Sequence record: PP968062.1
Direction: 5' to 3' (one strand)
From: Pseudomonas phage HPP-Temi
DNA length: 64,000 bases
A model generated the notes under the pieces. That model made no database searches. It saw only the letters and a list, made by a program, of their open reading frames with translations, and was not told the origin of the DNA. A program made the position numbers and the translations under genes. Of this stretch, positions 23,186 to 60,403 are shown in pieces (positions within the stretch are counted from its first letter, which is position 1; each line of letters starts with the position of its first letter).

Positions 23186-23458
23186 TCAGAGAGCGTAAGA
23201 CTCAACGATAGGGCCAACTAGGTAGCCCACCCATATAGCCATTACACACGGCATTGCAAAATCATGCATGTCCATCCAACGCTTGAACCACTTGGGAGAA
23301 CGCTTGAACACCCACTTCCAAATATCTCGCGCTTTGAATTGGATATACACGTAGAACCAGATGGAGACACCGATGAACAGAAATATTGCAGCCTTCTCAT
23401 GGTAAGCCGAGATGTAAGCTGTAATGATGCCAACGATGATCGCTAGGTAGTATTGCAT
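23186..23458 (-). CDS. small membrane protein 90 aa (2-3 TM)
   Basis: ORF track; hydrophobic. Confidence 0.55.
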   Translation of the reverse strand: MQYYLAIIVGIITAYISAYHEKAAIFLFIGVSIWFYVYIQFKARDIWKWVFKRSPKWFKRWMDMHDFAMPCVMAIWVGYLVGPIVESYAL

Positions 23459-24063
23459 TATACCTCCAGTTTGGCGAGCGCTTCATCCAGGAACATTTTG
23501 AACACATCTCGTACAACCGGATGCGCTTTCGTCATCCGATTATAGAGATCGAGTTTCTCGTTGAGGAACACCGGAGCAAACTTCGGAGAGTCTTCAACAA
23601 TAACGTAGACGTTAGTCAGAGACTCGATCAGTTTACAGGTTTGCGTGATATCGCAGCACGACTCCAGTTGGGTGTGGTAAGTATCAATACGAACTTTGCG
23701 CGGAGCATCGAAGTTCGGTTGAGTCAAACCTTTCACAAGCCTGGTGATATAAGGAGTGAAGTGAACCAATACATCTTCAATGGTCCAACTACTATCCTCA
23801 ACAATGTCATGAAGCCACAAAGCAGCTTGCTCACCGGGTCCCAGGCCGAATACCTTGGCGATGGTAGCGGAGTTGTGTAAGTGGGTCCATACAGGCAAAC
23901 CAGAGCCTTTACGACGCTCTCCTGATCCGATCGTGTAACCTACCCCAATAGCGGCTGCCAACTCTACAGTATGGTGCCCTTTCCATAGCGGAAGCACGTT
24001 CGCTGGAAGGCGAGTATCCAAGATAGCTTTAACTTGCTGATATGCTTCTGCTACTACGTCCAT
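23458..24063 (-). CDS. HD-domain phosphohydrolase, Rel/SpoT-hydrolase-like (small alarmone hydrolase candidate)
   Basis: H..E..........HD..ED pattern: HHTVELAAAIG ... LWLHDIVEDS; 201 aa single domain. Confidence 0.55.
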   Translation of the reverse strand: MDVVAEAYQQVKAILDTRLPANVLPLWKGHHTVELAAAIGVGYTIGSGERRKGSGLPVWTHLHNSATIAKVFGLGPGEQAALWLHDIVEDSSWTIEDVLVHFTPYITRLVKGLTQPNFDAPRKVRIDTYHTQLESCCDITQTCKLIESLTNVYVIVEDSPKFAPVFLNEKLDLYNRMTKAHPVVRDVFKMFLDEALAKLEV

Positions 24064-29739: not shown

Positions 29740-29757
29740 GGGGAGCCGAAGCTCCCC
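29740..29757 (-). terminator. terminator GGGGAGC-UUCG-GCUCCCC
   Basis: perfect stem with CGAA loop, TTTATTTTTTG on minus strand. Confidence 0.7.
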
Positions 29758-29763
29758 TTTATG

Positions 29764-31128
29764 TCACTCAGCCGAAGCTTGCGCTTCTTTAGCAGCGGCT
29801 TTCTCTTCCTCTTTTTCCTTCTTGAGCAAGTAGCTGTTCGATATGGATTTCCAGGAGAGTACACGTTGGTTGGACTTGAAGACCAGACCTTCGCGGTAGC
29901 CACGTTTGTTCTTGAACGCGGACGGACCTTCAGCCATTGCCAGGACATCTTTAACAGAGGTCTCAGCGGTAGGCTTCCAGGCCGGATCGAATACCGGTAC
30001 GTATTTCAGGCCGAGTTCTTTCACGATGGAACGTGCTTCAGCCGGCAGTAGTTCACGATTGCCATCTTCGTAGACGTTGAACACGAAGTAATCGTAATCG
30101 GCTACTTCTTCAAAGTTATCCTGAATGGACGGGCCAATCAGTTCACCCTGTACGGAGATGTAGCGACCAGTGGTGGCCTGGAAGTTGCGCAGACGTTCGA
30201 TGATCTGCTGTTGATTGGTAACACGTACGAAGTTGTTGTCTTCGATAGCAGTACCTTTTGTCCACAGGGGCCAGATGATACCGTTACGAAGTTTACCTTC
30301 CGGAGTAATCCAGGTCTTCTTGCGGAATACGTTACGGTTACGGATCAGGAAGTTGCCGACCCAGTAACGCAGTTGTTGCAGGAAGCCCCACTTCTCACCA
30401 CCCATACCCAGCTCGTAGTTACGCGAGCAAACGCCAGTACGAACACCTTTATCTTCTACGCAGAACACGGTCATGGAGCTACCATCGAGTTTGTAGGTAA
30501 CTTCCATGTCATCGCCGGCTTCTTTTAGGGTATTGAAAGCAACGGTTTTGTTCTGGATACGATCTTGGTCAGACTTGGTCAGCATTACAGGCCAGGGCTT
30601 CAGCGCGCCACCCAGATCACCAATCAGCTTGACAGCTAGCTTGACGATCCACGGAGCGTTACGTGCAGCGTGAGCTTTCGGTACCATCGGAGGAGCAGAC
30701 TCGTATTTCAGGATACCCAGCTTCAGAGTCAGGTTAGTATCAACCGGCTCGTCTTTGAACTCTTCCGGAATAGGAACCAACAGACCCTGGGACAGCTCTT
30801 TGCGAAGCTTGATGGTTTTCAGACGATGATAGTTCTTACCATCTACACGACGGTTATCGGAACGACGAGCTTCCAGGAAACCGAACAGTGGGATGTTGTC
30901 CAGCGGAAGCAGAGAGTCGATCTCGCAATAGATAGCACGATCGCCTTTCTTGTACTCACCGAGTTTTACGCACAGTTGCCAACCACCAACAATTGCCAGT
31001 TCCAACGCGTCTGCGTTCGGGTGCTTGACTACGTCGTCGATTTCAACGATACGTGCCAGCTTACGAGTTTCTTCTACAACGCCGAAGCCTTCGCGGATCG
31101 GTTTGAGTTCTTCCATTTCGAGAGTCAT
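29764..31128 (-). CDS. ATP-dependent RNA ligase, Rnl family with N-terminal OB-like domain (DraRnl/NgrRnl-like) and Lys/Glu-rich C-terminal tail
   Basis: nucleotidyltransferase motif I TYKLDGSS (KxDG); 454 aa. Confidence 0.7.
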   Translation of the reverse strand: MTLEMEELKPIREGFGVVEETRKLARIVEIDDVVKHPNADALELAIVGGWQLCVKLGEYKKGDRAIYCEIDSLLPLDNIPLFGFLEARRSDNRRVDGKNYHRLKTIKLRKELSQGLLVPIPEEFKDEPVDTNLTLKLGILKYESAPPMVPKAHAARNAPWIVKLAVKLIGDLGGALKPWPVMLTKSDQDRIQNKTVAFNTLKEAGDDMEVTYKLDGSSMTVFCVEDKGVRTGVCSRNYELGMGGEKWGFLQQLRYWVGNFLIRNRNVFRKKTWITPEGKLRNGIIWPLWTKGTAIEDNNFVRVTNQQQIIERLRNFQATTGRYISVQGELIGPSIQDNFEEVADYDYFVFNVYEDGNRELLPAEARSIVKELGLKYVPVFDPAWKPTAETSVKDVLAMAEGPSAFKNKRGYREGLVFKSNQRVLSWKSISNSYLLKKEKEEEKAAAKEAQASAE

Positions 31129-31207: not shown

Positions 31208-31606
31208 TTAGGTATTTACACCCCAGTTGTAGTCGTAGTAGGTTTCACAGAAGGTCTTACCTGCGGTATACTTCATGGTGCAGTTGTTGGAATCAACCAG
31301 AGTCGCTAAGTCTTCGAACGGTACAGGGTGACCACTCATCGGAGAGATGATCGTGTAACCGTTGTAGCGCAGATGATCAACCAGAGCAACCATACCAGTT
31401 TCCAAACCGACATTGTAGATGCGGTTTTCTTTCGGAGTCTCAACGATGTACTGTTCACCAGCAGGAATGTCAGTGATCAGACTACGATCGTCATCGGTAC
31501 GAGCTACATCGGCCATGGTCCGACTGATTTCCCAGCAGAACTCATTGAGTACGGGGTTGGATTCTTGCCATTCTTTCTTTTCTTGCAGACGCTGTTCGCA
31601 GGACAT
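31208..31606 (-). CDS. hypothetical protein ~133 aa, C-terminal ...WGVNT tail family
   Basis: ORF track 31208..31762 trimmed to ATG with GAGGT RBS downstream of the promoter element. Confidence 0.55.
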   Translation of the reverse strand: MSCEQRLQEKKEWQESNPVLNEFCWEISRTMADVARTDDDRSLITDIPAGEQYIVETPKENRIYNVGLETGMVALVDHLRYNGYTIISPMSGHPVPFEDLATLVDSNNCTMKYTAGKTFCETYYDYNWGVNT

Positions 31607-31671: not shown

Positions 31672-31689
31672 GGGGAGCCGAAGCTCCCC
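31672..31689 (-). terminator. terminator GGGGAGC-UUCG-GCUCCCC
   Basis: perfect 7-bp stem with CGAA loop, TTTATG flank. Confidence 0.65.
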
Positions 31690-31697
31690 CATGTCTA

Positions 31698-33464
31698 TTA
31701 CAGAGATGCAGCAATCCGTTCCCGGATCTTAGCCATCGTGTCGTGTTTGTAGAACTCACCATTCTTGAAGAACAGTTTCAGTTCACCCGATTCGGTTTCC
31801 AAAGCATCCCAACTAAGGTCAGCTTCTTGTTCCAGAACGAACTTACCATCTTCGGTCTTCACTACATGCAGGAAACCTTTAGCCGACTTCTTGGAAGAAG
31901 CAGCTTTAGGATCTTTGTACAGCTCAACGAACTCGTCTTCGATCTGAACAGCAGTAGCTTTGACAGCCATGCCGAAAGTATCGCGAGTGTTGTACTGATA
32001 GGTGAAGCTACCGATACCAAGAACTACGTTGCTAGAAGCGAAGCCTTTACGTTCCAGGCGAGACATGATCTGCTCGGTACGGTCTACAGTGATCGAGTCA
32101 CCATAGATCAGGCCAACGTATTCGTTCAGGCACTTGAAGCCTTTACTGTTCTCAGTACCACCGAAGGAGTCCCACAGGACTTCAATTGCACCGCGTACTT
32201 CCACCTCAGGGATTTCAGTCTCAGAGAGGAAGTTAGACAGACTGACAGCGAGGTCGTTGATCTCGTAGTACTTACCACCTACGCTAACAACTTCGTAACC
32301 AGCGTACTCAATGGAACCGTATTCGGCAATGTGTTTCTCGAAATCAACACGATCAGCGAATTTAATCGGATAAGCCATGTAGCCAGTGATGACTTTAACC
32401 GGATCACCAGAGTCAGGACGAACAACAACTTTCGCCAGACCCAGCTCGTTCTTCAGACGACTTTCGATTTCTGCACGGATGCTCGGGAGAACATCAGAGA
32501 TAACACCCCAGAAGTCGAAGGAATCACAGACCAGCGAAATAATGCCTTCCGGGACTTTCTGAAGAATGATCTCCAGGATGTAGTCACGTTCAGCTTCCAA
32601 CCGCAGTTGGTCATGTAGTTCCGGAGTGATCACAGTACCTTCCTCTTGGAGGAAGTTGATCTTCATTTGCAGACGGTACAGGATGTTGGTTGTGGCGACA
32701 GCGTGTTCAGTTGCAGTAACTGATGCACCCAACAATTCAGTATCACTGTTAGCACCGTAATACATCTCAGCGTAATCGAGAGCCGGGATGGTATCGGTAC
32801 CAGCGAAGCTAGTCAGGTGAGCTGTACCAGAACGCATTGCATCTTCAGGACCACTCATACCACGGAAGCTGAAGTCGTGTGCCTGGAACTTGACGTGCTC
32901 ACGGTTATCGCAGGTGCGGTCAGCGTAGTGGTTCAGTACACGCTGATACTCAGCTGCAATAGTTGCGTTACAGATCATCTTCCAGTTGTAGGCACTGACG
33001 ATGGTTTCCAGGTAGTTCACCAGCCAGTAGTGATCATCGTCATCCAGGCTGTTGTAAACCACAAAGGTAGGTACGCCAACATCTACACGTTCGCCTTCGT
33101 CAATAGCCAGCACCGTCAGAGGCAGGTAGCCCAGAGCATGCAGCTTGTACAGACACTCGTGTTTGATAACGCCTTTACCGCACATGTTGTCGAAACGACG
33201 AGCAGCGCGTTTAACAGCGATTTCACGAGGCAGATTGAAGAAGGTACGATCCCACAGTTCTACCAGTTCGTGCCAGGTACCTTGCAGACCGAAGTTAACG
33301 ACTTTGTTGTCGTAGAACGCAGAACAAGACTTCGACCGCAGGAACTGCTTAGCAGAACGCGGGGTGAAGTTTGCATACTTACGTTCAGTACCTTTCGGAT
33401 ACAGAGCGCCATGGCCAGGTTTATAGCAGTCAGTAGCAGTTGCTGCATAGAGAGCATTAGACAT
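31698..33464 (-). CDS. nadV: nicotinamide phosphoribosyltransferase family enzyme (NadV/NAMPT-like; possibly a nicotinamide ADP-ribose transferase 'Namat')
   Basis: TDCYK, NFGLQ, YWLVNYLET, HDFSFRGMS, AHLTSFAGTDT, VVRPDSGDP all align with NAMPT blocks; ~60-aa insertion after RPDSGDP. Confidence 0.8.
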   Translation of the reverse strand: MSNALYAATATDCYKPGHGALYPKGTERKYANFTPRSAKQFLRSKSCSAFYDNKVVNFGLQGTWHELVELWDRTFFNLPREIAVKRAARRFDNMCGKGVIKHECLYKLHALGYLPLTVLAIDEGERVDVGVPTFVVYNSLDDDDHYWLVNYLETIVSAYNWKMICNATIAAEYQRVLNHYADRTCDNREHVKFQAHDFSFRGMSGPEDAMRSGTAHLTSFAGTDTIPALDYAEMYYGANSDTELLGASVTATEHAVATTNILYRLQMKINFLQEEGTVITPELHDQLRLEAERDYILEIILQKVPEGIISLVCDSFDFWGVISDVLPSIRAEIESRLKNELGLAKVVVRPDSGDPVKVITGYMAYPIKFADRVDFEKHIAEYGSIEYAGYEVVSVGGKYYEINDLAVSLSNFLSETEIPEVEVRGAIEVLWDSFGGTENSKGFKCLNEYVGLIYGDSITVDRTEQIMSRLERKGFASSNVVLGIGSFTYQYNTRDTFGMAVKATAVQIEDEFVELYKDPKAASSKKSAKGFLHVVKTEDGKFVLEQEADLSWDALETESGELKLFFKNGEFYKHDTMAKIRERIAASL

Positions 33465-33480
33465 ATTTTTGATCCTCGGA

Positions 33481-34368
33481 TTAGAAAACAGAATGGGAGA
33501 AGAATTTCGGGTCACGTACACCATCATGCCGATAATCATTTACAGCGTTAGGATGATAGGTGTTAGTGGTCTGGATATAATCGTAGTATTCGTTCAGTTC
33601 GTCGAAACCCTTGGAGAAAATACCATGGGTTACAAACAGACCCAGTTGATCTACGATGCACTGCTCGTGGATAACCTTAGCAAGTTCAATGAACGTGCGG
33701 CCACCATCACAGATGTCATCGATAACCATCAACTTAGCTAGTCGAGGAACTTCATGGGCATTCAACAGCGACGTGTGGGTGATCTTACCAGTCGACAGTT
33801 CACGGTTCTTACAAGCGTACAGTACGCCAGCAGCACCGATCTCTTTCGCAATGGCTTCGGTCTTTTTACGTGCACCTTCATCAGGGGCAACCAACCACCA
33901 GTCACTCGGATTTTCCAGAAGTTGCCCTTCGACACACACCCAGCTTTTGATGATATCTGCTTGGGTAATCTCGCGGCAATTGTTGATGAGTGGCAGCGAC
34001 ACATTACTGTGAGGATCGTACAGGCATACAGACGTAGCGTCCAATGCATTGATCAAACCAGTCATCACACTAATCGACAGAGGTTCACCTTCATCGCAAA
34101 CACGATCTTGTCGTGCGTACGGCAGATAACCAATAACCAAGTGTATTTCAGGACGAATACGCTGGCGACGAATAGCGTCGAATACCAGGAACAGTTCCAT
34201 GATATCGTCACTATTACGAAGCCAAGCATTGATTATGAATCGTTCGCCTTTCTTTCTGAGATCTTTCAGAGGGATCTTGATACCGATCTCACCGCCAGGG
34301 AATTTAAAGGGTTGACAATCGTAGTGATCTGCCAAGCCGTTACCGTGAAGCTGAGTAATTCGAATCAT
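33481..34368 (-). CDS. prs: ribose-phosphate pyrophosphokinase homolog (Prs-like; candidate ADPR-pyrophosphokinase 'Adps')
   Basis: YLPYARQDR and VIDDICDGGRT match Prs signatures; ribose-5-P loop (DLHA.Q.QGFF) replaced by DPHSNVSLPL and DTGGT by DGGRT. Confidence 0.75.
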   Translation of the reverse strand: MIRITQLHGNGLADHYDCQPFKFPGGEIGIKIPLKDLRKKGERFIINAWLRNSDDIMELFLVFDAIRRQRIRPEIHLVIGYLPYARQDRVCDEGEPLSISVMTGLINALDATSVCLYDPHSNVSLPLINNCREITQADIIKSWVCVEGQLLENPSDWWLVAPDEGARKKTEAIAKEIGAAGVLYACKNRELSTGKITHTSLLNAHEVPRLAKLMVIDDICDGGRTFIELAKVIHEQCIVDQLGLFVTHGIFSKGFDELNEYYDYIQTTNTYHPNAVNDYRHDGVRDPKFFSHSVF

Positions 34369-34393: not shown

Positions 34394-34409
34394 GGGGACC
34401 GAAGTCCCC
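34394..34409 (-). terminator. terminator GGGGAC-UUCG-GUCCCC
   Basis: 6-bp stem with CGAA loop, TTCTTTCCTAAAGG flank. Confidence 0.55.
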
Positions 34410-34416
34410 GTTCGGG

Positions 34417-35670
34417 TTAGCCCTTGACGCAAACAATCTGACGCAGGGTGTGGACGATCTCAATGAGGTCATCCTGAGCAGCCATTACGTCTTCAATGTT
34501 CTTATAAGCCTTTGGAGTCTCGTCGATCACGTCAATGTCTTTCCGGCATTCTACACCGGCAGTATCACGAGCATGATCTTCAAGAGTGAAAGTCTTAGCG
34601 GCTTGGGTTCGGGACATGACACGTCCTGCTCCGTGCGAACACGAACAGAAGGACTCGCGGTTCCCTTTACCTTTCACGATGAAGCTCTTAGCGCCCATCG
34701 ATCCAGGGATAATACCGTACATGCCTTCATCTGCACGCACAGCGCCTTTACGAGTTACGGATACTTTCGCACCGAAGTGGTTCTCGAACGACACGTAGTT
34801 GTGGTGACAGTTTACAGCAGTAAGGCTAGTGTTGATAGGCCGACCCATGTAGTCAGCCACAGCCTCGATTGTTGCACGCATCATGATCGTACGGTTGAGA
34901 GCAGCGTAACGCTGTGCCCAATGTACAGCCTCGATGTAGTCGCTGTAGTACTTGGTACCTTCCGGCAGATAAGCGAGGTCCTGATCAGGCAGATTGATGT
35001 GGTAAAGCCGCATCTCCTCTTTTGCTTTCTCGATAAAGTACCGACCAATTGCGTTACCGATTCCACGAGAACCCGAATGGAGCATGATCCAAACTCGATC
35101 TTGTTCATCCAGACAGATTTCTACGAAGTGGTTACCAGTACCGAGAGTACCTGCGTGGTTGAAAGCACGGTTAGCAGCCTTACCCAGTTTCGGGTGTTTA
35201 GCCACGATGAGCTTCAGTTCCTCTTCAAGCTTCTTAACCTGAGCTTGGAGCTCCGGTTCGAGTTTCTTGTAAACGAGGTTGAAGTCACTCCATGCGCCAC
35301 GATCATTCGGTCCGCCATTGTCAGTACGACCATGAGGGATCCGAGACTCAATACGGTAACGCAGATGTTGCAAGCCACGAGTCATGTCGTTAGCTGTCAG
35401 ATCAGTCAACTGTGCTGCCATTCCACAGCCAATGTCAACCCCTACCGCAGACGGAATGATTGCACCCCGCGTAGCGATTACGGAACCGATGGTTGCACCG
35501 GTACCAAGGTGGACATCAGGCATTACAGCCAGATGCTTATAAATGAACGGGAGTCCCGCAATGTTCTTCAGCTGACGTTTTGCATCAGCTTCAACAGGGA
35601 CGCCTTTAACCCAAGCTTTAATTGGGAATTCATTTTGTTCGTTCAGCATAACGTATTTTTGAGTAGTCAT
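34417..35670 (-). CDS. rtcB: RtcB-family RNA 3'-phosphate/2',3'-cyclic phosphate ligase
   Basis: NHAGTLGTGNHF, HSGSRGIGN, AVNCHHN, SHGAGR blocks typical of RtcB; 417 aa. Confidence 0.85.
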   Translation of the reverse strand: MTTQKYVMLNEQNEFPIKAWVKGVPVEADAKRQLKNIAGLPFIYKHLAVMPDVHLGTGATIGSVIATRGAIIPSAVGVDIGCGMAAQLTDLTANDMTRGLQHLRYRIESRIPHGRTDNGGPNDRGAWSDFNLVYKKLEPELQAQVKKLEEELKLIVAKHPKLGKAANRAFNHAGTLGTGNHFVEICLDEQDRVWIMLHSGSRGIGNAIGRYFIEKAKEEMRLYHINLPDQDLAYLPEGTKYYSDYIEAVHWAQRYAALNRTIMMRATIEAVADYMGRPINTSLTAVNCHHNYVSFENHFGAKVSVTRKGAVRADEGMYGIIPGSMGAKSFIVKGKGNRESFCSCSHGAGRVMSRTQAAKTFTLEDHARDTAGVECRKDIDVIDETPKAYKNIEDVMAAQDDLIEIVHTLRQIVCVKG

Positions 35671-35806: not shown

Positions 35807-36391
35807 TCATCGGTCCGATTCAACGGACATAGATAACTCTTTATGTTTTCTTCGCCTTTCGACATCGGCGAACCAAGGTCTTACACTGAGCCACATTGCA
35901 GGCCAACTAAGAATAGCAGCTATAGCCATCCATACTGCGCTGAGTAATACCCATGCATCGTTACCATCATCAACATCGCGTGGAGCTATGTCTAGTTGAT
36001 AACCGGTTCCAACGGGGACATGGTGATATGTGTAATCACCGAGCTTGGTTTCGTATACGAAGGGAACACCTTTCATTTTCCCTTCCCAACGACCCTTTAG
36101 CTCGGTATAAACACCGTTCTTGTACTTGTGAGATTCTTCCCATTTCCAGGTCAGTACAACCTGGGTCTTACGTTTGGTAACGTAGTCAGAGAAGAATGAG
36201 TTGTAGACTGCACCACCCATAAATGCTAAGCAGATTAGGTAGAGTACCACACAACGCAGTTTAACCCACTTGGAGATTGGTACATACGGCTCTTGTTTCA
36301 TGGTTATCGTACAGCCGGTTGCGTTTGCATAACCCAAGGGATTCCTTGTGGCCATTGCATATATTGCAGCTGCCTCCGGAGTTATATTCAT
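35807..36391 (-). CDS. membrane protein 194 aa (at least two TM)
   Basis: ORF track; ATGA overlap with upstream gene. Confidence 0.55.
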   Translation of the reverse strand: MNITPEAAAIYAMATRNPLGYANATGCTITMKQEPYVPISKWVKLRCVVLYLICLAFMGGAVYNSFFSDYVTKRKTQVVLTWKWEESHKYKNGVYTELKGRWEGKMKGVPFVYETKLGDYTYHHVPVGTGYQLDIAPRDVDDGNDAWVLLSAVWMAIAAILSWPAMWLSVRPWFADVERRRKHKELSMSVESDR

Positions 36392-37215
36392 TTAGGATTC
36401 CCATGGATAAGCTGGAACGTGTCGAACTTGTATTGATCAACGAAGTACCATGCGAGTTCACTCAGCTTAAAGATATCCGGACGTTCGTATTCACCGAAGT
36501 CGGGTTTCTCTTTAGCCAAATGGAAATCGATGAAACGGTCCAATACAGGACAACGATCGATCAAGTCTTGTTCAGTGGAACCTACCTTACAGTTGACCAG
36601 TTCCTGAATACGTTTGTACAGGGTAGGATCAGACAGAATCGGTAGGAGTTCATGGAATACCATCGGTGGATGTTCACGACTAGTCTCAACCCACAATGCT
36701 GCTAACAGTGGACGGAGAGCATAGAAGTATTTCTTCATGCGGACTTTCTCATCCGACAGCCAACGCATCTTGGTTTGCTTGGCCATGGAGATATAGTGCA
36801 TGAAGCTCGATTCGGGAATGAAGTGCTTGATAGCGTAATCACGAATCAGTTTGTAATCCCACTCGATCTTACGGTAAACGATCGGGGAGTTCAACCATTC
36901 CAACAGAGTCGGGTTAGACTTGTAAGCCAGTTGAAGTGTCTTGGTGATACTCCAACCAGCCAGATCGAGTTCCTTGGAAACCATCTCTTCGATGGTGTCA
37001 CGACCTTCGTTATCAACCCGGACATAATGGCTCGGATGGTTAACGTAGATGAAGCGAACATCGTAGTCGCTATTAGTAGAAGCGAAACCCCAACCACGAC
37101 TACCGGACTCACAGGCGTAAATGATCTTTACACCATACTTCTGTTCGATACGAGTTAACTCGGCGTCTATAACTGCACGCATCTCATCACTAACAGGGTG
37201 ACGTGGATCCATCAT
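36388..37215 (-). CDS. pol-beta superfamily nucleotidyltransferase, RlaP-like (RNA-repair-associated family)
   Basis: YACESGSRGWGFASTNSDYDVRF = GS(x9-10)D.D NTase motif; 275 aa. Confidence 0.6.
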   Translation of the reverse strand: MMDPRHPVSDEMRAVIDAELTRIEQKYGVKIIYACESGSRGWGFASTNSDYDVRFIYVNHPSHYVRVDNEGRDTIEEMVSKELDLAGWSITKTLQLAYKSNPTLLEWLNSPIVYRKIEWDYKLIRDYAIKHFIPESSFMHYISMAKQTKMRWLSDEKVRMKKYFYALRPLLAALWVETSREHPPMVFHELLPILSDPTLYKRIQELVNCKVGSTEQDLIDRCPVLDRFIDFHLAKEKPDFGEYERPDIFKLSELAWYFVDQYKFDTFQLIHGNPK

Positions 37216-38634: not shown

Positions 38635-40068
38635 TTAAACAGCAACTTTACCAGCAATGTGCGGATGGAACTGGTAATCCAGGATCTCGTAATCTTCACG
38701 AGTAATATCCAGGAACGGCTTACCTTTGGCCTCAGGCTTGAAGCGGATGGTAGGAGTAGGATAAGTATTGCGGGAACGTTGCAGTGTAACTTGTTCTTCA
38801 TGGTTACTGTAGATATGGCAATCGCCACCAGTCCAGATGAACTCTTCTGCTACCATGTTAAACTGATTCGCCAACTGATGAGTCATCAACGAATAGAACG
38901 TGATGTTGAACGGATTCCCAAGGAAGTTATCGGAAGATCTTTGATAGAGCTGACAGCTGATCCCACGGGAAGGAGCTTTATGCTCATCCAACCAAGCTAC
39001 TACAGCCTCATCAGTAGCGGCCGCATCACCACGCCAAATCCTCAGATGGGCTTTGACTTGTTCTGCGTTACCGAACGGAGGTTGACCACGAGTAGTTCCA
39101 CCACTGTGTTGGTCGTGATAAGCATCCTCTTCGAATTGGCTTTGATCCAGAGCCTGCACTCTTTCGTCTACGGTCAGCTTACGAGTCCAGAACTGAATGA
39201 AGGCATGACACGGAGGCAATGCTTGATCTTCAACCAGACGAGGATCCCAGGCGCAGATGATAAGACGACGACTATCTGGGTTATGTTTAAGTTGCCACAG
39301 AAGTTCTTGAACCTGATCCACACGGCGACGGATAACACATTCATCTTTCGTGTAGTCTTCGCCAGGTACGTCAACTACGAACTTAAAGCCGCGCTTCTCG
39401 TAATTAGCCCAGTCTACTTTAGGAATGATACGAACATCATCGATATCACGCCAGGTTTTACCATAGACCGGACCAAGATCACCGCCAACTAAACGGAAGG
39501 CAGACAACAGACCATCGCTGTCTTTAATCACGATCTTTGCATCACCGATGACAATACGATATACACGTAGAGCCATTCCATAGTAGTCGAATGCATCGGG
39601 ACCAGGACCGAAACGACTTACATCGGCCCACGTCTTCAGATTAATTAGAAGTAGTGCCGGTTTGTCCTGTTCAGGATCAATCCACTTCCAATCGATATCA
39701 CCGATCTCATTGCTGAAATGCATCTCAAACGGAATGTTCTTGAACTTCTTCTGAACAGCTGTAGTCAGCCATTCGTCGGAAACGCGTTCGAATACTTCGG
39801 TACCCGGTTTAACCCATTCGTTCCAGATGGTGACGTTCTTGCTCAGGAGATATTCTAGGCGAGTGTCACCAGACTTCATCCAGTTGAGTTCTTCTTCAAC
39901 GGAAGGCAAGTGGATCTTCTTGGTGGTTACTACCGGAAGGTTTCCGTTACGGAGATCATAACGGAACTGCCTACCGAACAGAGAGGTCGTACCAGTGCCG
40001 GTACGATCCCCTTTGAATACACCGTACTTCTGTGTATCTTCCAGTAACTGTAGGTATTGATGCATCAA
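38635..40068 (-). CDS. thyA: thymidylate synthase (ThyA)-family enzyme with three large insertions (477 aa vs ~265-290 typical); dUMP-specific (Asn retained)
   Basis: GDRTGTGT, DLGPVYGKTWR, NPDSRRLIICAWDP, PPCHAFIQF, SCQLYQRSSDNFLGNPFN, WTGGDCHIYSNH all collinear with E. coli ThyA. Confidence 0.8.
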   Translation of the reverse strand: MMHQYLQLLEDTQKYGVFKGDRTGTGTTSLFGRQFRYDLRNGNLPVVTTKKIHLPSVEEELNWMKSGDTRLEYLLSKNVTIWNEWVKPGTEVFERVSDEWLTTAVQKKFKNIPFEMHFSNEIGDIDWKWIDPEQDKPALLLINLKTWADVSRFGPGPDAFDYYGMALRVYRIVIGDAKIVIKDSDGLLSAFRLVGGDLGPVYGKTWRDIDDVRIIPKVDWANYEKRGFKFVVDVPGEDYTKDECVIRRRVDQVQELLWQLKHNPDSRRLIICAWDPRLVEDQALPPCHAFIQFWTRKLTVDERVQALDQSQFEEDAYHDQHSGGTTRGQPPFGNAEQVKAHLRIWRGDAAATDEAVVAWLDEHKAPSRGISCQLYQRSSDNFLGNPFNITFYSLMTHQLANQFNMVAEEFIWTGGDCHIYSNHEEQVTLQRSRNTYPTPTIRFKPEAKGKPFLDITREDYEILDYQFHPHIAGKVAV

Positions 40069-41351: not shown

Positions 41352-42101
41352 TTATTCCTCAAGACGGAGTTTCCAGAACCCGCCTTCCTCTTTCCACGTT
41401 TCACGAATAGCGTTGTCAGTACGTTGGCCGTCCTTAAACAGCTTCTCTACATTGGACGGGTGAGTATAGTTGTACAACGCAATTGCGAATTGAGCTACGG
41501 CTACACGAGCTGGAATAACACCAGTACCCGTACCCATCAGACAGCCGAGTACACGGAAGGAGTTTTTCTTACCGTACCATTCACAGCCAGCAATGCCGTC
41601 CAGGGCTGCCTTAGAGGCCAGATAAGGAACATCTGAACCTTTGGGTAACCTACGAGGAACACGCATTGTAGGAGTGTACAAGAGCGTTGCAGTGATGCCA
41701 TTAAGCTTAGTGAACTGTACGCATGCACAAACACCTACGTTTAGTTCACCGTTGTGGAAACGATTGATATCGTGTACCACGTTCTTCTGCATGTTTACAA
41801 AACGAGCAGCCAGTGCTCCGTCATAACCACCGGTCATATGCCCGTACGAGTTACCCGCAGTCATGTAGTAGTCGAAGTCATCCGCGATGTCTTCAAGATC
41901 ATCAAGGGAACCATGGAATACTTTTAGATCATGTCCAAGGTCCTTGACGAAATCGGAAATGGCGATGAGCTCTTGGAACTCTTCATAGCTGGGGGTGCAA
42001 AATACGAACTCCAATGGTTTTCGTCCGACATCCGACAAACTAAGAGTAATGCCGTCGGCAATCTCTTTGTGGATACGGGACATTACGAGTGGAGATGTCA
42101 T
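41352..42101 (-). CDS. macro-domain protein (ADP-ribose / Appr-1''-p binding or hydrolase)
   Basis: YMTAGNSYGHMTGGYDGALA resembles macro signature N-A-A-N-x-x-L-x-G-G-G-V-D-G-A-I. Confidence 0.55.
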   Translation of the reverse strand: MTSPLVMSRIHKEIADGITLSLSDVGRKPLEFVFCTPSYEEFQELIAISDFVKDLGHDLKVFHGSLDDLEDIADDFDYYMTAGNSYGHMTGGYDGALAARFVNMQKNVVHDINRFHNGELNVGVCACVQFTKLNGITATLLYTPTMRVPRRLPKGSDVPYLASKAALDGIAGCEWYGKKNSFRVLGCLMGTGTGVIPARVAVAQFAIALYNYTHPSNVEKLFKDGQRTDNAIRETWKEEGGFWKLRLEE

Positions 42102-48945: not shown

Positions 48946-51535
<2,590 letters not shown>

Positions 51536-52184: not shown

Positions 52185-52829
52185 TTATACCCGTGGCAGA
52201 ATAACCTTATCTGCCTGTTTCATGTACTTACCACCACGATCAGCATAGGACGTTTCACAGTCTTGGTCGAGATCATGGAATACCAACTGCAACACGCCTT
52301 CATGCGCATAGAACACGTTAGGACGGTTAGTTGTATTCTGGAACTCAAACGTGATGTGTCCTTCCCAACCCGGTTCGATCGGAGTGCACAGGCAATTCCA
52401 GCCGGCGCGAGCGATGGTTGATTTACCGATACACATTGCGATTACATTCCGAGGCATACGGACGTACTCTTTCGAGTGAGTCAGCAGGAATCCGCCCGGA
52501 GGAACCACAACCTTGTCACCGTAAACAGTGTCGAACAGATCTGGACTGATGTTCTTGTAATCCAGTACAGGATGTTCAAGTTCTTTACCTGTTACCCAAG
52601 CTTTAAAACGTTGCCAGAAAGTGAACTTAGGTAGAGGCTTGAATACTTTAAACTCAGTACCTGCACGAAGATCATAACCACCAGAAGACAGTCCATAGGA
52701 AGCGATACGCTTACCTTGACTATCTTCCTTTACGGACATACCGTGGAAAGGTTCGATCATGGGACCATGAGCACCAACCATTGCGCCTTCGCAATATTCA
52801 CGGATTGTTTTATCAGAAAGAACGGTCAT
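52185..52829 (-). CDS. dcd: dCTP deaminase (Dcd) family
   Basis: SSGGYDLRAG, GKSTIARAGW, EPGWEGHITFE blocks. Confidence 0.8.
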   Translation of the reverse strand: MTVLSDKTIREYCEGAMVGAHGPMIEPFHGMSVKEDSQGKRIASYGLSSGGYDLRAGTEFKVFKPLPKFTFWQRFKAWVTGKELEHPVLDYKNISPDLFDTVYGDKVVVPPGGFLLTHSKEYVRMPRNVIAMCIGKSTIARAGWNCLCTPIEPGWEGHITFEFQNTTNRPNVFYAHEGVLQLVFHDLDQDCETSYADRGGKYMKQADKVILPRV

Positions 52830-53609: not shown

Positions 53610-54032
53610 TTAATTGTCACGGCTTTTCTCCAATTGATAGGTGGGAGCTCTCTTTCCAAAGATACTTCTCCGGCAAACGAAGCATCCACAACGAGTGCCC
53701 GTCGGTTCCGACCCATCGCACGAAAGAGCTTGTTGCAGCAGACGTTCATAACCACCTTCTATGTCATTACCCATTAAGGCTTCTTCAGCCAGGACTAGTT
53801 CGATATTGGCAAGCATCATCTGGTCATCCATTGGACGACGATGGTTGTCATGCCACTGGACCGGAGCTTTAGCCGAGTCCAGGATCTCTTTGATCTTACC
53901 CAGTGAATAGGTTTCACCAGTGTTTCGATGAAGTTGCTTGTGGAACTCAAGCGGATCGATAGGGGAGTGTTTGAATATAACTCCTTTAATCGAAGTCAAG
54001 GAGTCGGGGATCTTTTGGGTGATGGATTGCAT
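53610..54032 (-). CDS. hypothetical protein 140 aa with C-terminal CGCFVC pair
   Basis: ORF track; AAGAGA RBS. Confidence 0.5.
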   Translation of the reverse strand: MQSITQKIPDSLTSIKGVIFKHSPIDPLEFHKQLHRNTGETYSLGKIKEILDSAKAPVQWHDNHRRPMDDQMMLANIELVLAEEALMGNDIEGGYERLLQQALSCDGSEPTGTRCGCFVCRRSIFGKRAPTYQLEKSRDN

Positions 54033-54642
54033 GCCAGTTAATCTCTTCGTAGGGATAGTCCAATTCGTAACGATCTAAGAATTGGATTACCCATTCCAGA
54101 ACGTCATCGTAGTAGAGGTTCTTACGAATAGGAACATTCGCATTAACACTCAAACGAACAGCTGTGTTGGTGCCACCATTTACAATCTCGTTCTCACGCT
54201 TACCTTTCGGTTCAGCGTAATAGAAGATACCAGAAACCAACTCAGCCAGGGTGTGTCCATGGATCTGGAAAACATTTCGAGTATGGAGCGCTTTACCGTA
54301 GTCATCTAACCCAGCAAAGCTACCACGAGCCAACGCGGCCATGCTAGCCGCTGTAGTCCACGTATCAGTGAACTGTGATGCATCTATAAAGAAGTCATTG
54401 TCACGGATACGATAGAAGCTACTACCTCTACCACTAGCAAGGTATATACGGGCCCCTACCTCGCTATAGGAGCGAGATTGCCTCGCCCCGTACCAACCAG
54501 CCCTGTCTGAATCGAACGCATCGCCAGAGCTTATAGCCCAGCCATAATCGGTTAGAGTACGGCCAAGCCTGATCATTACTTCCAGCACCCATTCAGGAAC
54601 CTTTCGTGACCCAACGATAGCCATGTATCCTCTAGCCTGCAT
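53986..54642 (-). CDS. SLOG/DprA-like Rossmann-fold protein
   Basis: N-terminal MAIVGSRKVPEW...GWAISSGDAFDSDRAG resembles DprA/LOG/YpsA nucleotide-binding fold. Confidence 0.5.
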   Translation of the reverse strand: MQARGYMAIVGSRKVPEWVLEVMIRLGRTLTDYGWAISSGDAFDSDRAGWYGARQSRSYSEVGARIYLASGRGSSFYRIRDNDFFIDASQFTDTWTTAASMAALARGSFAGLDDYGKALHTRNVFQIHGHTLAELVSGIFYYAEPKGKRENEIVNGGTNTAVRLSVNANVPIRKNLYYDDVLEWVIQFLDRYELDYPYEEINWHAIHHPKDPRLLDFD

Positions 54643-55111: not shown

Positions 55112-55849
55112 TTAATGCCTCGGGATTCTATAGTAGTCAGGACCTGCTTGGTTATAGACGTAGTGATTGTGGTCTTTATCGTTAGGACCAGGGAATCGTT
55201 CCTGTGGATTACGATACGGGATCAATGCACGTCTTGCTGTGGCAAATACAGTTTCCTTGTGACGAGCTTTGTATTCACTGAGAACACGGGTCATGGTAAT
55301 ACAGGGCTTACATAACCCGCAGTGTTTATCACCAACCGGTGTCTCACATATCCAGATGTCGTTCAGTACTCTCTTATCCAACTCACGAAGGATATCGACT
55401 TTGTTCATACCGAGAAGAGGGAACTCAACTGGGATAGGGTCGTTAACACAGGCCACCTTTTGCAGATTGTACCAGGCGTCTTCGATGTAGCGTAGGTGGG
55501 ATCCGAAGTATGCACCGTCGTCAGCCACATAGCCGATTACGAGCTTACTATGTCTCGCTGAATCAGCAATAGCTAACGCACCAAACAACCAGGGTGCAAC
55601 TTGACCCCACTTGGTGTTATCACCTGTAAGCTGCGTACTCTTCAAACGTTCATATTGAGCTTGAACTTTATGCGGATAGAACCCAGCAAACTTCTCAAGG
55701 ATCACTTGACGCTGCTTAAGTTCTTGTGTCATCTTTTCTTCTTGTTGACCAGCATTGATGTACATGACATCCACCGGACCTTCTTGAAGAAGCTGTTGGA
55801 GCATGTAGGTGGAATCCAAACCACCAGAAAAGAGAATCAATGGGTTCAT
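55112..55849 (-). CDS. queC: 7-cyano-7-deazaguanine (preQ0) synthase QueC
   Basis: PP-loop LILFSGGLDST; C-terminal zinc cluster CETPVGDKHCGLCKPC; 245 aa. Confidence 0.85.
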   Translation of the reverse strand: MNPLILFSGGLDSTYMLQQLLQEGPVDVMYINAGQQEEKMTQELKQRQVILEKFAGFYPHKVQAQYERLKSTQLTGDNTKWGQVAPWLFGALAIADSARHSKLVIGYVADDGAYFGSHLRYIEDAWYNLQKVACVNDPIPVEFPLLGMNKVDILRELDKRVLNDIWICETPVGDKHCGLCKPCITMTRVLSEYKARHKETVFATARRALIPYRNPQERFPGPNDKDHNHYVYNQAGPDYYRIPRH

Positions 55850-55876
55850 CGCTATTTCCAAAAAAGAAATAAAAAA

Positions 55877-59183: not shown

Positions 59184-59600
59184 TTAAGCAGTTTTGGGGA
59201 TACGACCGATGCTGATGCTACGGAGCATGCCATAAACACGTCCATTAGCCAGATCCATTTTACCATTACAGAAACGATCGGTCTTGACTTCCCAACCGAT
59301 ACCTTGAAGGAACTTAGCAACAGCTGCACTACGAGAAATGCCTGCTTCACAATGAACGATTAGAGTTTCACCATCGGGAACCTTATCAATGAAGGTAAGG
59401 ATCTTATCGGCATGAACGTAATCGAACATCTGATAGCGATTGTCCACGTAGTCTTCGACATCATCAAAGATCAACACGAGGATGTCTTTATGTTCACGAA
59501 CGAACTTCACCTCTTGTCCAGGACAACGGATAGAGATGATGTAGCTTTCTTCGGTTAGAGCCTGAGCAGCTAAACGAGAATAGAACTTAACCTTCTTCAT
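59184..59600 (-). CDS. cysteine phosphatase, dual-specificity-phosphatase-like (HCX5R)
   Basis: LIVHCEAGISRSAAV signature; ORF track 59184..59681 trimmed to MKKVKF start (ATGA overlap). Confidence 0.6.
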   Translation of the reverse strand: MKKVKFYSRLAAQALTEESYIISIRCPGQEVKFVREHKDILVLIFDDVEDYVDNRYQMFDYVHADKILTFIDKVPDGETLIVHCEAGISRSAAVAKFLQGIGWEVKTDRFCNGKMDLANGRVYGMLRSISIGRIPKTA

Positions 59601-60403
59601 ACGTCTACCTTTCGATGTAACATCAGACGAGTCCAGGAAGCCGAACCCTGACCAGTAACAGCTGTGGATACACCGCTCCAACCTTGCTCACTGAGCTCAG
59701 CGTGGAGCTCATGCATTACCTCGACGTGGATAACGCCATTAATACCGAACTCGTAAACCAGGTGTTGTTTCTTTTGACGGACAGCATGTTGACCAGCAGC
59801 TCGCACCTTCTCGGCGTTCTGCCATTCGTACGTACGAAGCATAGTCAGAACATCGTCTTTGGTGAGGATGGTGAATCCTTCAAAGAAGTCAGGTCTGATA
59901 CCTTTATTCAGCTGCTTGCTAACGGAGACATCGACTGCCTCGCTAGCCGGTATATCTAGGATAGGAGAACTGGGTTTAATGCCTTCTTCAGCGACTCGGA
60001 GAATAGAAGGATGTACATAACCATCAGTAATGGTTCCTTCTTTCTTGACTACAAAACCAGCTCGGCGTGAATCATCGTAACGTAGTTCACACGGTATGAG
60101 TTCCATCACCCATTCACCAACCCAAGCTGGGTAATCCATGTCACTGGATACAACCGCTGACTGACTTGTACGCATGATGATCTGATTGTAAGCAAGTTTG
60201 ACAAAGAAGCGAATATCGTCTTTGTCACTGTTGAACAGGAATGCCTTTCGATGGTTACGGGTAAGGTTTACACCACTCAGATCGTGAGTGACATAGAAAC
60301 GTTGTCGCTCACTGTCATCTAGAATTTGACTGAAGCAGATCACATAGAAAGCGTTGGGGTCTAGGCCTTTTAGAAGGTCAAGACCCTTTTCATTGAAACT
60401 CAT
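59597..60403 (-). CDS. hypothetical protein 268 aa (first gene of the leftward array)
   Basis: ORF track; AAAGGAGAA RBS. Confidence 0.6.
   Translation of the reverse strand: MSFNEKGLDLLKGLDPNAFYVICFSQILDDSERQRFYVTHDLSGVNLTRNHRKAFLFNSDKDDIRFFVKLAYNQIIMRTSQSAVVSSDMDYPAWVGEWVMELIPCELRYDDSRRAGFVVKKEGTITDGYVHPSILRVAEEGIKPSSPILDIPASEAVDVSVSKQLNKGIRPDFFEGFTILTKDDVLTMLRTYEWQNAEKVRAAGQHAVRQKKQHLVYEFGINGVIHVEVMHELHAELSEQGWSGVSTAVTGQGSASWTRLMLHRKVDV

Follow-up and report, generated by a model that had tools for sequence, protein, structure and literature searches.

The adps-namat gene pair of Pseudomonas phage HPP-Temi, very probably an already catalogued NARP1 pathway for NAD+ reconstitution

Results

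The window analyzed here, that is, the whole 64-kb stretch (64,000 nucleotides) of sequence record PP968062.1 from Pseudomonas phage HPP-Temi, belongs to a lineage whose full genomes are approximately 300 kb long. Between positions 31698 and 34368 it harbors two intact open reading frames (ORFs) on the minus strand, an upstream one that codes for a Prs-like protein and a downstream one that codes for a NAMPT-like protein, which we call adps and namat, respectively. The pair very probably represents NARP1, a pathway that makes NAD+ from ADP-ribose (ADPR) and nicotinamide. A preliminary description of the sequence had reported two adjacent genes at these positions and had proposed a NARP1-type Namat-plus-Adps pair rather than the canonical NadV-plus-NatV pair. 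Both ORFs were indeed found intact on the minus strand, and the proposal is borne out by the adenine clamp motif of Namat, by the Adps residues, by the failure of Prs models to accept the Prs-like protein, by the lack of a nicotinamide mononucleotide (NMN) adenylyltransferase in the 64 kb, and by the existence of catalogued orthologs. The presence, order, and integrity of the genes were read directly from the window, and the family of each product was established from its sequence, motifs, and predicted structure; both products are 99% identical to catalogued NARP1 proteins.

The DNA of the window is 94.9% identical to that of Pseudomonas phage PA1C and 88 to 90% identical to those of PS119XW, phiHQ, BRkr, phiLBG22, and HHBS36_1. 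These are phiKZ-like jumbo phages of Pseudomonas aeruginosa with genomes of approximately 300 kb, and the window belongs to the same group. The gene pair is not new but an ordinary copy of the NARP1 that the PA1C/PS119XW group of jumbo phages carries, since orthologs of this lineage have already been catalogued in the supplementary tables of Osterman et al. 2024. Table S1 of that work (Prs/Adps family) lists MK599315_00291 of PA1C, MN103543_00276 of PS119XW, together with the orthologs from BRkr and phiLBG22, each with the entry "Namat within 10 genes: Yes," and Table S2 lists MK599315_00292 and MN103543_00277 as Namat, "Adps-associated."

The Prs-like protein

The sequence of the Prs-like protein supports its placement with Adps, outside canonical Prs. 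It matched PHROG 619, "ribose-phosphate pyrophosphokinase" (E = 6.5e-80), and Pfam Pribosyltran_N, and its best sequence matches, in a PDB copy without any Adps structure, were ordinary Prs (E ~1e-14). It failed the TIGR01251 model, with 104.6 bits for a cut-off of 113, as well as all NCBIfam Prs equivalog models, on which it reached at most 90 bits for cut-offs of at least 296, whereas E. coli Prs, used as a control, passed the NCBIfam Prs models with 422.7 and 532.6 bits. Placement was decided by reciprocal profile scoring, with a single sequence, that of E. coli, on the canonical Prs side. Using a hidden Markov model built from 13 Adps sequences of the Osterman et al. table, from which the window lineage was excluded, the Prs-like protein scored 267.6 bits versus 134.3 bits for E. 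coli Prs. A Namat homolog is found within 10 genes, as it is encoded by the adjacent gene, 16 nt downstream.

The motifs singled out in the preliminary description were all present, namely, YARQDR at amino acid (aa) 84, DPHSNVSLPL at aa 118, where E. coli Prs has DLHAEQIQGFF, and DDICDGGRTF at aa 217, where E. coli Prs has DDMIDTGGTL, so that DGGRT stands in place of DTGGT. These loops are not peculiar to this protein, and neither is the large insertion of Namat (see below); the loops turned out to be common features of the Adps clade, as the insertion is of long-form Namats. All aligned Adps (n = 15) have [DE]xHS but no QGFF, together with APDxGAxK, KxR[DNE]xxTGxI, and DD[IL]x[DS]xGGx[TS]F. 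The altered loops had also been taken to suggest an altered sugar-phosphate substrate. This was right as to the outcome, but in the ICP1 structures the pyrophosphate (PP) loop binds the donor phosphates of ATP and not the sugar phosphate.

We mapped the functional residues using the sequence of ICP1 Adps taken from the phage record and the numbering of PMC13586617. The ICP1 structures reported there (2026) define the functional residues of the enzyme, identify the loss of alpha11-alpha12 as a family signature, and show that the PP loop holds the ATP donor phosphates and that ADPR spans the former ADP and ribose-5-phosphate sites. From ICP1 to the window Adps, the correspondences are F18 to F23, R87 to R86, H121 to H120, D161 to D163, K185 to K187, D212/D213 to D217/D218, I214 to I219, and F221 to F226, and the PP loop C215-S220 corresponds to CDGGRT, a sequence identical in Bas63 Adps. 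Lys187 sits in CKNRELSTGKI, which fits the K-x-R-[DNE]-x-x-T-G-x-I beta-hairpin motif of Adps; in the published enzymes, the K162A substitution of SPbetaL1 Adps and the K185A substitution of ICP1 Adps abolish activity. The C-terminal alpha11-alpha12 filament/regulatory module of Prs is missing by sequence, the TIGR01251 match stopping at position 273 of 309, and the C-terminal tail of the window Adps could not be aligned to that of E. coli Prs.

The NAMPT-like protein

The downstream gene product had been described as a NadV-like protein of the NAMPT family, in agreement with our results, as it matched PHROG 448, "nicotinamide phosphoribosyl transferase" (E = 2e-175), and Pfam NAPRTase and NAMPT_N, with its catalytic core residues intact. 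Its best PDB sequence matches were 9W5W and 9W5X, the crystal structures of SPbetaL1 Namat (E ~3e-101), followed by NadV of Haemophilus ducreyi (2.8e-93) and then by mammalian (human) NAMPT (~1e-45). An AlphaFold2 model computed with 54 homologs had a mean predicted local distance difference test (pLDDT) score of 92.7, and its top structural match was again 9W5X, with a template modeling (TM) score of 0.93.

The residues that contact NAD+ in SPbetaL1 Namat are conserved, 19 of the 21 being identical in the window Namat; the exceptions are R40, replaced by K39, and A362, replaced by S457. Among the identical contacts are those of the catalytic core and, in the clamp, F392, Y396, T398, R399, and D400 (SPbetaL1 numbering), with D13, Y15, F189, R192, D215, the TEH histidine, R306, and D308 of SPbetaL1 corresponding to D12, Y14, F198, R201, D224, H254, R349, and D351 of the window protein. 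The selectivity-clamp helix, which stacks on the adenine of ADPR-pyrophosphate or NAD+, starts with GS[YF] in all 54 aligned homologs and reads GS[YF]TYQxNTRD in nearly all of them. The same site reads GAQTYQRNTRD in H. ducreyi NadV and GGGLLQQLDRD in KVP40 NadV, an enzyme shown experimentally to prefer phosphoribosyl pyrophosphate (PRPP), and it is at exactly the clamp positions that KVP40 NadV departs from Namat. Alignment to characterized Adps and Namat enzymes, with inspection of active-site residues, had been put forward in the preliminary description as a way to check its proposal, and its results agree with it on both sides, with the catalytic and acceptor residues of Adps kept and most NAD+ contacts of Namat unchanged.

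Search for an NMN adenylyltransferase

We looked for an NMN adenylyltransferase by a motif scan and by Pfam scans of the window ORFs rather than with KVP40 NatV as a probe, as the KVP40 record has no NatV annotation within 20 kb of nadV. The motif scan of the 64-kb window yielded no ORF with the [HT]xGH nucleotidyltransferase motif, and none of the window ORFs with a length of at least about 60 aa had a CTP_transf_like Pfam match. The earlier statement that these 64 kb contain no such enzyme thus holds by both approaches.

Comparison with characterized systems and proposed function

PA1C, PS119XW, BRkr, phiLBG22, phiHQ, and HHBS36_1 all carry these two genes, arranged as in the window and with the same adjoining RtcB gene. 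The PA1C proteins MK599315_00291 and MK599315_00292 are identical to those of the window at 292 of 295 and 582 of 588 positions, with 3 and 6 substitutions, respectively, and those of the other five phages are 93 to 98% identical to the window pair. PA1C differs in the ORF of 132 aa downstream of namat, the products of which are only 70% identical.

Among more distant systems, the in vivo-validated NARP1 of Escherichia phage Bas63 (JohannRWettstein) has the Adps-then-Namat order, the CDGGRT and DPHSNV motifs identical to those of the window, and a long-form Namat with an insertion after RPDSGDP. It differs in that its Adps is 34% identical to ours, the Namat insertions cannot be aligned, and the clamp loop has Lys-Trp instead of Lys-Gln-Phe. 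The NARP1 of Bacillus phage SPbetaL1, known from biochemistry and from the 9W5W and 9W5X structures, has a Namat 43% identical to that of the window, with the likeness in NAD+ contacts, clamp helix, and fold given above, and the catalytic Lys162 of its Adps corresponds to Lys187. However, SPbetaL1 Namat is a short form of 491 aa that has neither insertion and a shorter clamp loop with Arg40, and SPbetaL1 Adps is 25% identical to the window protein, with SSFGGT instead of CDGGRT. Adps of Vibrio phage ICP1, for which apo, ADPR/ATP, and ADPR-pyrophosphate/AMP structures are available, shares the catalytic Lys, the acceptor Arg, His, and three Asp residues, Phe18, the Phe that follows the PP loop, and the loss of the C-terminal Prs module. 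It differs by an overall identity of 30%, by its PP loop (CDGAAS versus CDGGRT), and by Phe92 and Phe223, which are Cys and Glu in the window protein. The NARP2 pathway (NadV and NatV of KVP40) and the bacterial Prs and NadV enzymes have in common with our pair the PRPS and NAMPT folds and the goal of supplying NAD+. In contrast with them, the window pair has no NMN adenylyltransferase partner in these 64 kb, the Namat clamp replaces GGGLLQ, and the Prs-like protein is devoid of the regulatory/filament module.

By analogy with the SPbetaL1, Bas63, FADO, ICP1, and DyoEdafos homologs, we infer the enzymatic activities of the two proteins and their role in counter-defense. Host immunity based on NADases (SIR2, TIR, and SEFIR effectors, as in Thoeris I, DSR1/2, and SIR2-HerA) would split NAD+ into ADPR and nicotinamide. 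Adps, with its Prs fold, would then use ATP to pyrophosphorylate ADPR; the beta-gamma pyrophosphate would be placed on the distal ribose, at its 1'' hydroxyl, yielding ADPR-pyrophosphate and AMP. Namat, with its NAMPT fold and an adenine clamp that would pick ADPR-pyrophosphate over PRPP, would exchange the pyrophosphate for nicotinamide to yield NAD+, a direct route involving neither an NMN intermediate nor an NMN adenylyltransferase. The NAD+ pool would thereby be restored for the needs of the phage, such as its own NAD-dependent DNA ligase. Pfam analysis confirmed the NAD-dependent DNA ligase LigA that had been noted at 48946-50994, and the phage therefore has an obvious need for NAD+.

For the window, the value of this identification lies mainly in correct annotation. 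The records of this lineage and approximately 1,500 other phage records still use the names "ribose-phosphate pyrophosphokinase" and "nicotinate/nicotinamide phosphoribosyltransferase," which hide the counter-defense function; such names, along with the label of the NCBIfam model NF006629, represent a systematic misannotation of NARP1. The presence of NARP1 in this group of P. aeruginosa jumbo phages helps predict their host range against strains with Thoeris I, DSR, SIR2-HerA, or SEFIR systems, and such predictions are relevant to the choice of therapeutic phages.

Alternative explanations

Several observations weigh against the assignment to NARP1. Identity to the characterized Adps enzymes is moderate (25% for SPbetaL1, 34% for Bas63, and 30% for ICP1), and that of Namat to the SPbetaL1 enzyme is only 43%. 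Phe92, an adenine contact in ICP1 Adps, corresponds to Cys91 in the window protein; this column varies among the 15 aligned Adps (C, M, F, A, E, or D), and Phe18, the other aromatic adenine contact, is kept as Phe23. In the window Namat, the clamp loop reads S-A-K39-Q-F and exceeds that of SPbetaL1 by 9 aa. The published rule for this loop calls for Arg, Lys, or Tyr as the third residue and has the loop supply the residue that stacks on adenine; Lys is allowed, but the fourth residue, Gln, is not aromatic. The same pattern, with Lys third and Gln fourth, occurs in long-form relatives of the window Namat. In addition, the NCBIfam "nicotinate phosphoribosyltransferase" equivalog model NF006629 accepts Namat, with 441.5 bits for a cut-off of 405, and that model therefore does not discriminate between the two. 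Namat enzymes keep an NMN-forming activity with PRPP in vitro, so that some NMN synthesis could still take place. Lastly, the direct scan for an NMN adenylyltransferase covered only 64 kb of a genome of approximately 300 kb.

Some of these points would fit a pair that boosts salvage, in which the Prs-like protein makes PRPP from ribose-5-phosphate, the NAMPT-like protein makes NMN, and host NadD, NadR, or PncC completes NAD+ synthesis. The names given to the two genes in public records and curated models, including the score on NF006629, are those that this explanation calls for, and the in vitro formation of NMN from PRPP by Namats is in line with it. Nevertheless, the Prs-like protein is rejected by every Prs model and has none of the QGFF, DTGGT, and C-terminal elements of Prs, and SPbetaL1 Adps yielded no product in a Prs assay (with ribose-5-phosphate and ATP according to the figure legend, or with PRPP and ATP according to the main text). 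Moreover, the adenine clamp specific for ADPR-pyrophosphate is intact in the window Namat, and Bas63 NARP1 was reported to work in a pncC nadR double mutant, hence in a host devoid of NMN-utilizing enzymes. We thus regard this explanation as very unlikely. The chances are slighter still that the pair is of the NARP2 type, with a NadV-like Nampt, a phage NatV encoded elsewhere, and a Prs-like protein that merely supplies PRPP. The portion of the genome scanned directly leaves room for a distant NatV gene, and jumbo phages carry many unannotated proteins. However, the window has neither motif nor Pfam match for an NMN adenylyltransferase, and its Namat does not have the Nampt-type GGGLLQ element of KVP40 NadV. 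Furthermore, the genome-wide scan of Osterman et al. 2024, which detected NARP1 in 859 phages (4.3%) and never together with NARP2 in a single phage, labels the PA1C and PS119XW Namats "Adps-associated."

A macro-domain protein as candidate accessory

A third possibility adds to the NARP1 explanation without replacing it. A 2026 preprint (doi 10.64898/2026.01.28.702374) describes Adpp, a macro-domain ADPR-1''-phosphate phosphatase found in 15% of NARP1 operons, which lets NARP1 overcome aRES. The preliminary description had noted a macro domain at 41352-42101. The protein itself gave no match in direct Pfam or PDB sequence searches, but the assignment is supported at the family level and by structure prediction. 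Five of its nine homologs matched Pfam Macro_2 and two matched Macro, and its AlphaFold2 model (pLDDT 85.3) had as its best PDB match 1NJR, the yeast ADP-ribose-1''-monophosphatase Ymx7 (E = 7e-8, 245 columns), followed by generic macro domains. In PA1C and Noxifer, the corresponding gene product is called "putative tail protein," and the invariant motif of these proteins is GNSYGHxTGGxDxA. From its predicted structure, this "putative tail protein" is a Ymx7-like macro-domain protein, which may have a role in ADPR-1''-phosphate processing.

The protein could thus act in trans as an ADPR-1''-phosphate phosphatase together with the NARP1 pair, forming a "split" NARP1-AP against aRES-type defense. 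Its confidently predicted macro fold, with an ADP-ribose-1''-monophosphatase as the closest structure, argues for this, and so do the matches of its homologs to PF14519, which is among the three Pfam families defining NARP1-associated macro proteins, and the occurrence of such a phosphatase in 15% of NARP1 phages according to the preprint. On the other hand, its gene lies approximately 7 kb, or roughly ten genes, from the pair, whereas published Adpp genes are found within two genes of it. No macro match was detected in the genes flanking the pair, which are those for RtcB and a membrane-like ORF of 194 aa upstream and for the 132-aa ORF and a small ORF downstream. Comparison with the characterized Gary Adpp by hhalign gave an alignment in register but no significant similarity (probability of 6.6%), and no protein with the GNSYGH motif appears in the published Adpp table of the aRES paper. 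Because of this low probability and the lack of a counterpart of its motif in the table, we did not call the protein an Adpp homolog. Macro domains have many other roles as well, for example in de-ADP-ribosylation and in processing the by-products of RNA repair, and genes for RNA repair are clustered nearby. We therefore consider this extension of the pathway rather unlikely. If true, the macro subfamily of a split NARP1-AP would differ from the published Adpp and would be missed by operon searches limited to two genes.

Gene layout

The NAMPT-like ORF as listed extends from 31698 to 33539, but homology starts only at Met26, at position 33464 ("MSNALYAAT"). The true start of namat is almost certainly this Met26, and its product is 588 aa long, since homology begins there, the ATG at 33464 has a GAGGA sequence 8 nt ahead of it and lies 16 nt past the stop codon of the Prs-like gene, and PA1C and PS119XW are annotated with the same start. 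adps and namat are probably transcribed in this order as one unit; characterized NARP1 operons have the same adps-then-namat order. The features of the pair and of its surroundings are collected in Table 1.

A hairpin nearly identical to GGGGGAGCTTCGGCTCCC is also present after the RNA ligase gene, at 29740-29757, and GC-rich UUCG hairpins of the GGGGAGCTTCGGCTCCCC type recur behind successive minus-strand genes (29740-29757, 31673-31690, and 34394-34409). The GGGGAGCTTCGGCTCCCC-type hairpins probably mark the limits of small transcription units, as terminators or as sites of RNA processing, and the adps-namat pair, with terminator-like hairpins on both sides, has the appearance of a separate unit of two genes.

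Table 1. Positions of the adps-namat pair, its functional motifs, and other features of the window
Feature	Position	Strand	Basis
adps, upstream gene of the pair, coding for a Prs-like protein of 295 aa, predicted ADP-ribose pyrophosphate synthetase	33481..34368	-	phrog_619, Pribosyltran_N, Adps HMM
namat, downstream gene of the pair, coding for a NAMPT-like protein of 588 aa, predicted nicotinamide ADP-ribose transferase	31698..33464	-	phrog_448, PDB match, AlphaFold2 model
16-nt spacer from adps stop to namat start, with GAGGA ribosome-binding site	33465..33480	-	sequence reading
GC-rich UUCG-loop hairpin GGGGACTTCGGTCCCC, between RtcB stop and adps start	34394..34409	-	sequence
GC-rich UUCG-loop hairpin GGGGGAGCTTCGGCTCCC, 7 nt past namat stop	31673..31690	-	sequence
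Adps DPHS (aa 118-121), His120 equivalent to ICP1 His121	34006..34017	-	alignment
Adps Lys187 codon, equivalent to the catalytic lysine of the SPbetaL1 (Lys162) and ICP1 (Lys185) enzymes	33808..33810	-	alignments
Adps DDICDGGRTF (aa 217-226), putative ribose-binding Asp pair and remodeled PP loop binding the ATP donor	33691..33720	-	maps to ICP1 D212, D213, I214, C215-S220, F221; role from ICP1 structures
Namat beta1-beta2 loop (aa 35-55), selectivity-clamp loop region, 9 aa longer than in SPbetaL1	33300..33362	-	alignment; Lys39 aligns with SPbetaL1 Arg40
Namat insertion 1 (aa 259-292, ~34 aa) after TEHAVATTN, part of a predicted long helical hairpin	32589..32690	-	alignment and model
Namat insertion 2 (aa 362-418, ~57-58 aa) after RPDSGDPVKVITG, predicted small alpha/beta subdomain	32211..32381	-	alignment and model
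Namat selectivity-clamp helix motif GSFTYQYNTRD (aa 485-495), predicted to stack on adenine of ADPR-pyrophosphate/NAD+	31980..32012	-	identical to SPbetaL1 Namat
Ymx7-like macro-domain protein, 249 aa, candidate accessory only	41352..42101	-	homolog Pfam matches and AlphaFold2 model
RNA ligase with PHA02142 OB domain	29764-31128	-	Pfam/PHROG
RtcB	34417-35670	-	Pfam/PHROG
RlaP-family nucleotidyltransferase	36388-37215	-	Pfam/PHROG
HD_4 domain protein, weak match	23458-24063		
dCTP deaminase-like protein	52185-52829		
QueC-like protein	55112-55861		
Dual-specificity phosphatase, weak match	59184-59681		

Insertions in Namat

The insertion of approximately 60 aa that had been noted after RPDSGDP measures approximately 57 to 58 aa, and two further additions were found that the preliminary description had not mentioned, another insertion of approximately 34 aa (insertion 1) and the longer beta1-beta2 loop. 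Insertion 1 is missing from SPbetaL1 Namat and from KVP40 NadV; helices are predicted at residues 254-274 and 281-303, and its length ranges from 25 to 41 aa across the 54 long-form homologs. Insertion 2 ranges from 7 to 92 aa among the same homologs, with a mean conservation of 0.31 compared with 0.63 overall, and this surface site, where insertions are common in long-form Namats, is hypervariable. Such long forms (575 to 610 aa) are abundant, notably on contigs of approximately 300 kb and in phages Psa21, D6, Phabio, and BRkr, and the Namat of Bas63 is likewise extended at the site of insertion 2. At this hypervariable site after RPDSGDP, the homolog P0060 (656 aa) has approximately 130 aa. 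A metagenomic Namat homolog, P0017 (902 aa), has an intein-like insertion inside the catalytic RPD/SG sequence (RPD-CYSS...VSGN-SGNP).

Neighboring genes

The NARP1 pair is surrounded by a set of RNA-repair genes coding for an RNA ligase, RtcB, and RlaP, which may be a countermeasure to anticodon nucleases. A fixed linkage between NARP1 and RNA repair was rejected, as the Adps and Namat genes of the phiKZ-like phage Psa21 lie in a different neighborhood. Because the neighbors differ in Psa21, the adps-namat pair alone is the conserved unit.

The 132-aa ORF downstream of namat (31208-31606, minus strand) had no Pfam, PHROG, or NCBIfam match. In a set of 5.8 billion proteins, its counterpart in PA1C was the sole homolog, with 70% identity compared with 99% for the NARP1 proteins, and the ORF is an ORFan, a fast-evolving gene. 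It was considered as an accessory of the RyDEP or Adpp kind, but there was no family match to support this.

The protein encoded at 53986-54642, which had been called a SLOG protein, proved to be DprA-like (phrog_768, E = 2.6e-42). DprA is classed in the SLOG superfamily. The thymidylate synthase encoded at 38635-40068 (minus strand) is 477 aa long and has approximately 140 extra residues in its first half, where they split the Pfam match. This long form of thymidylate synthase is also present in PA1C and Psa21.

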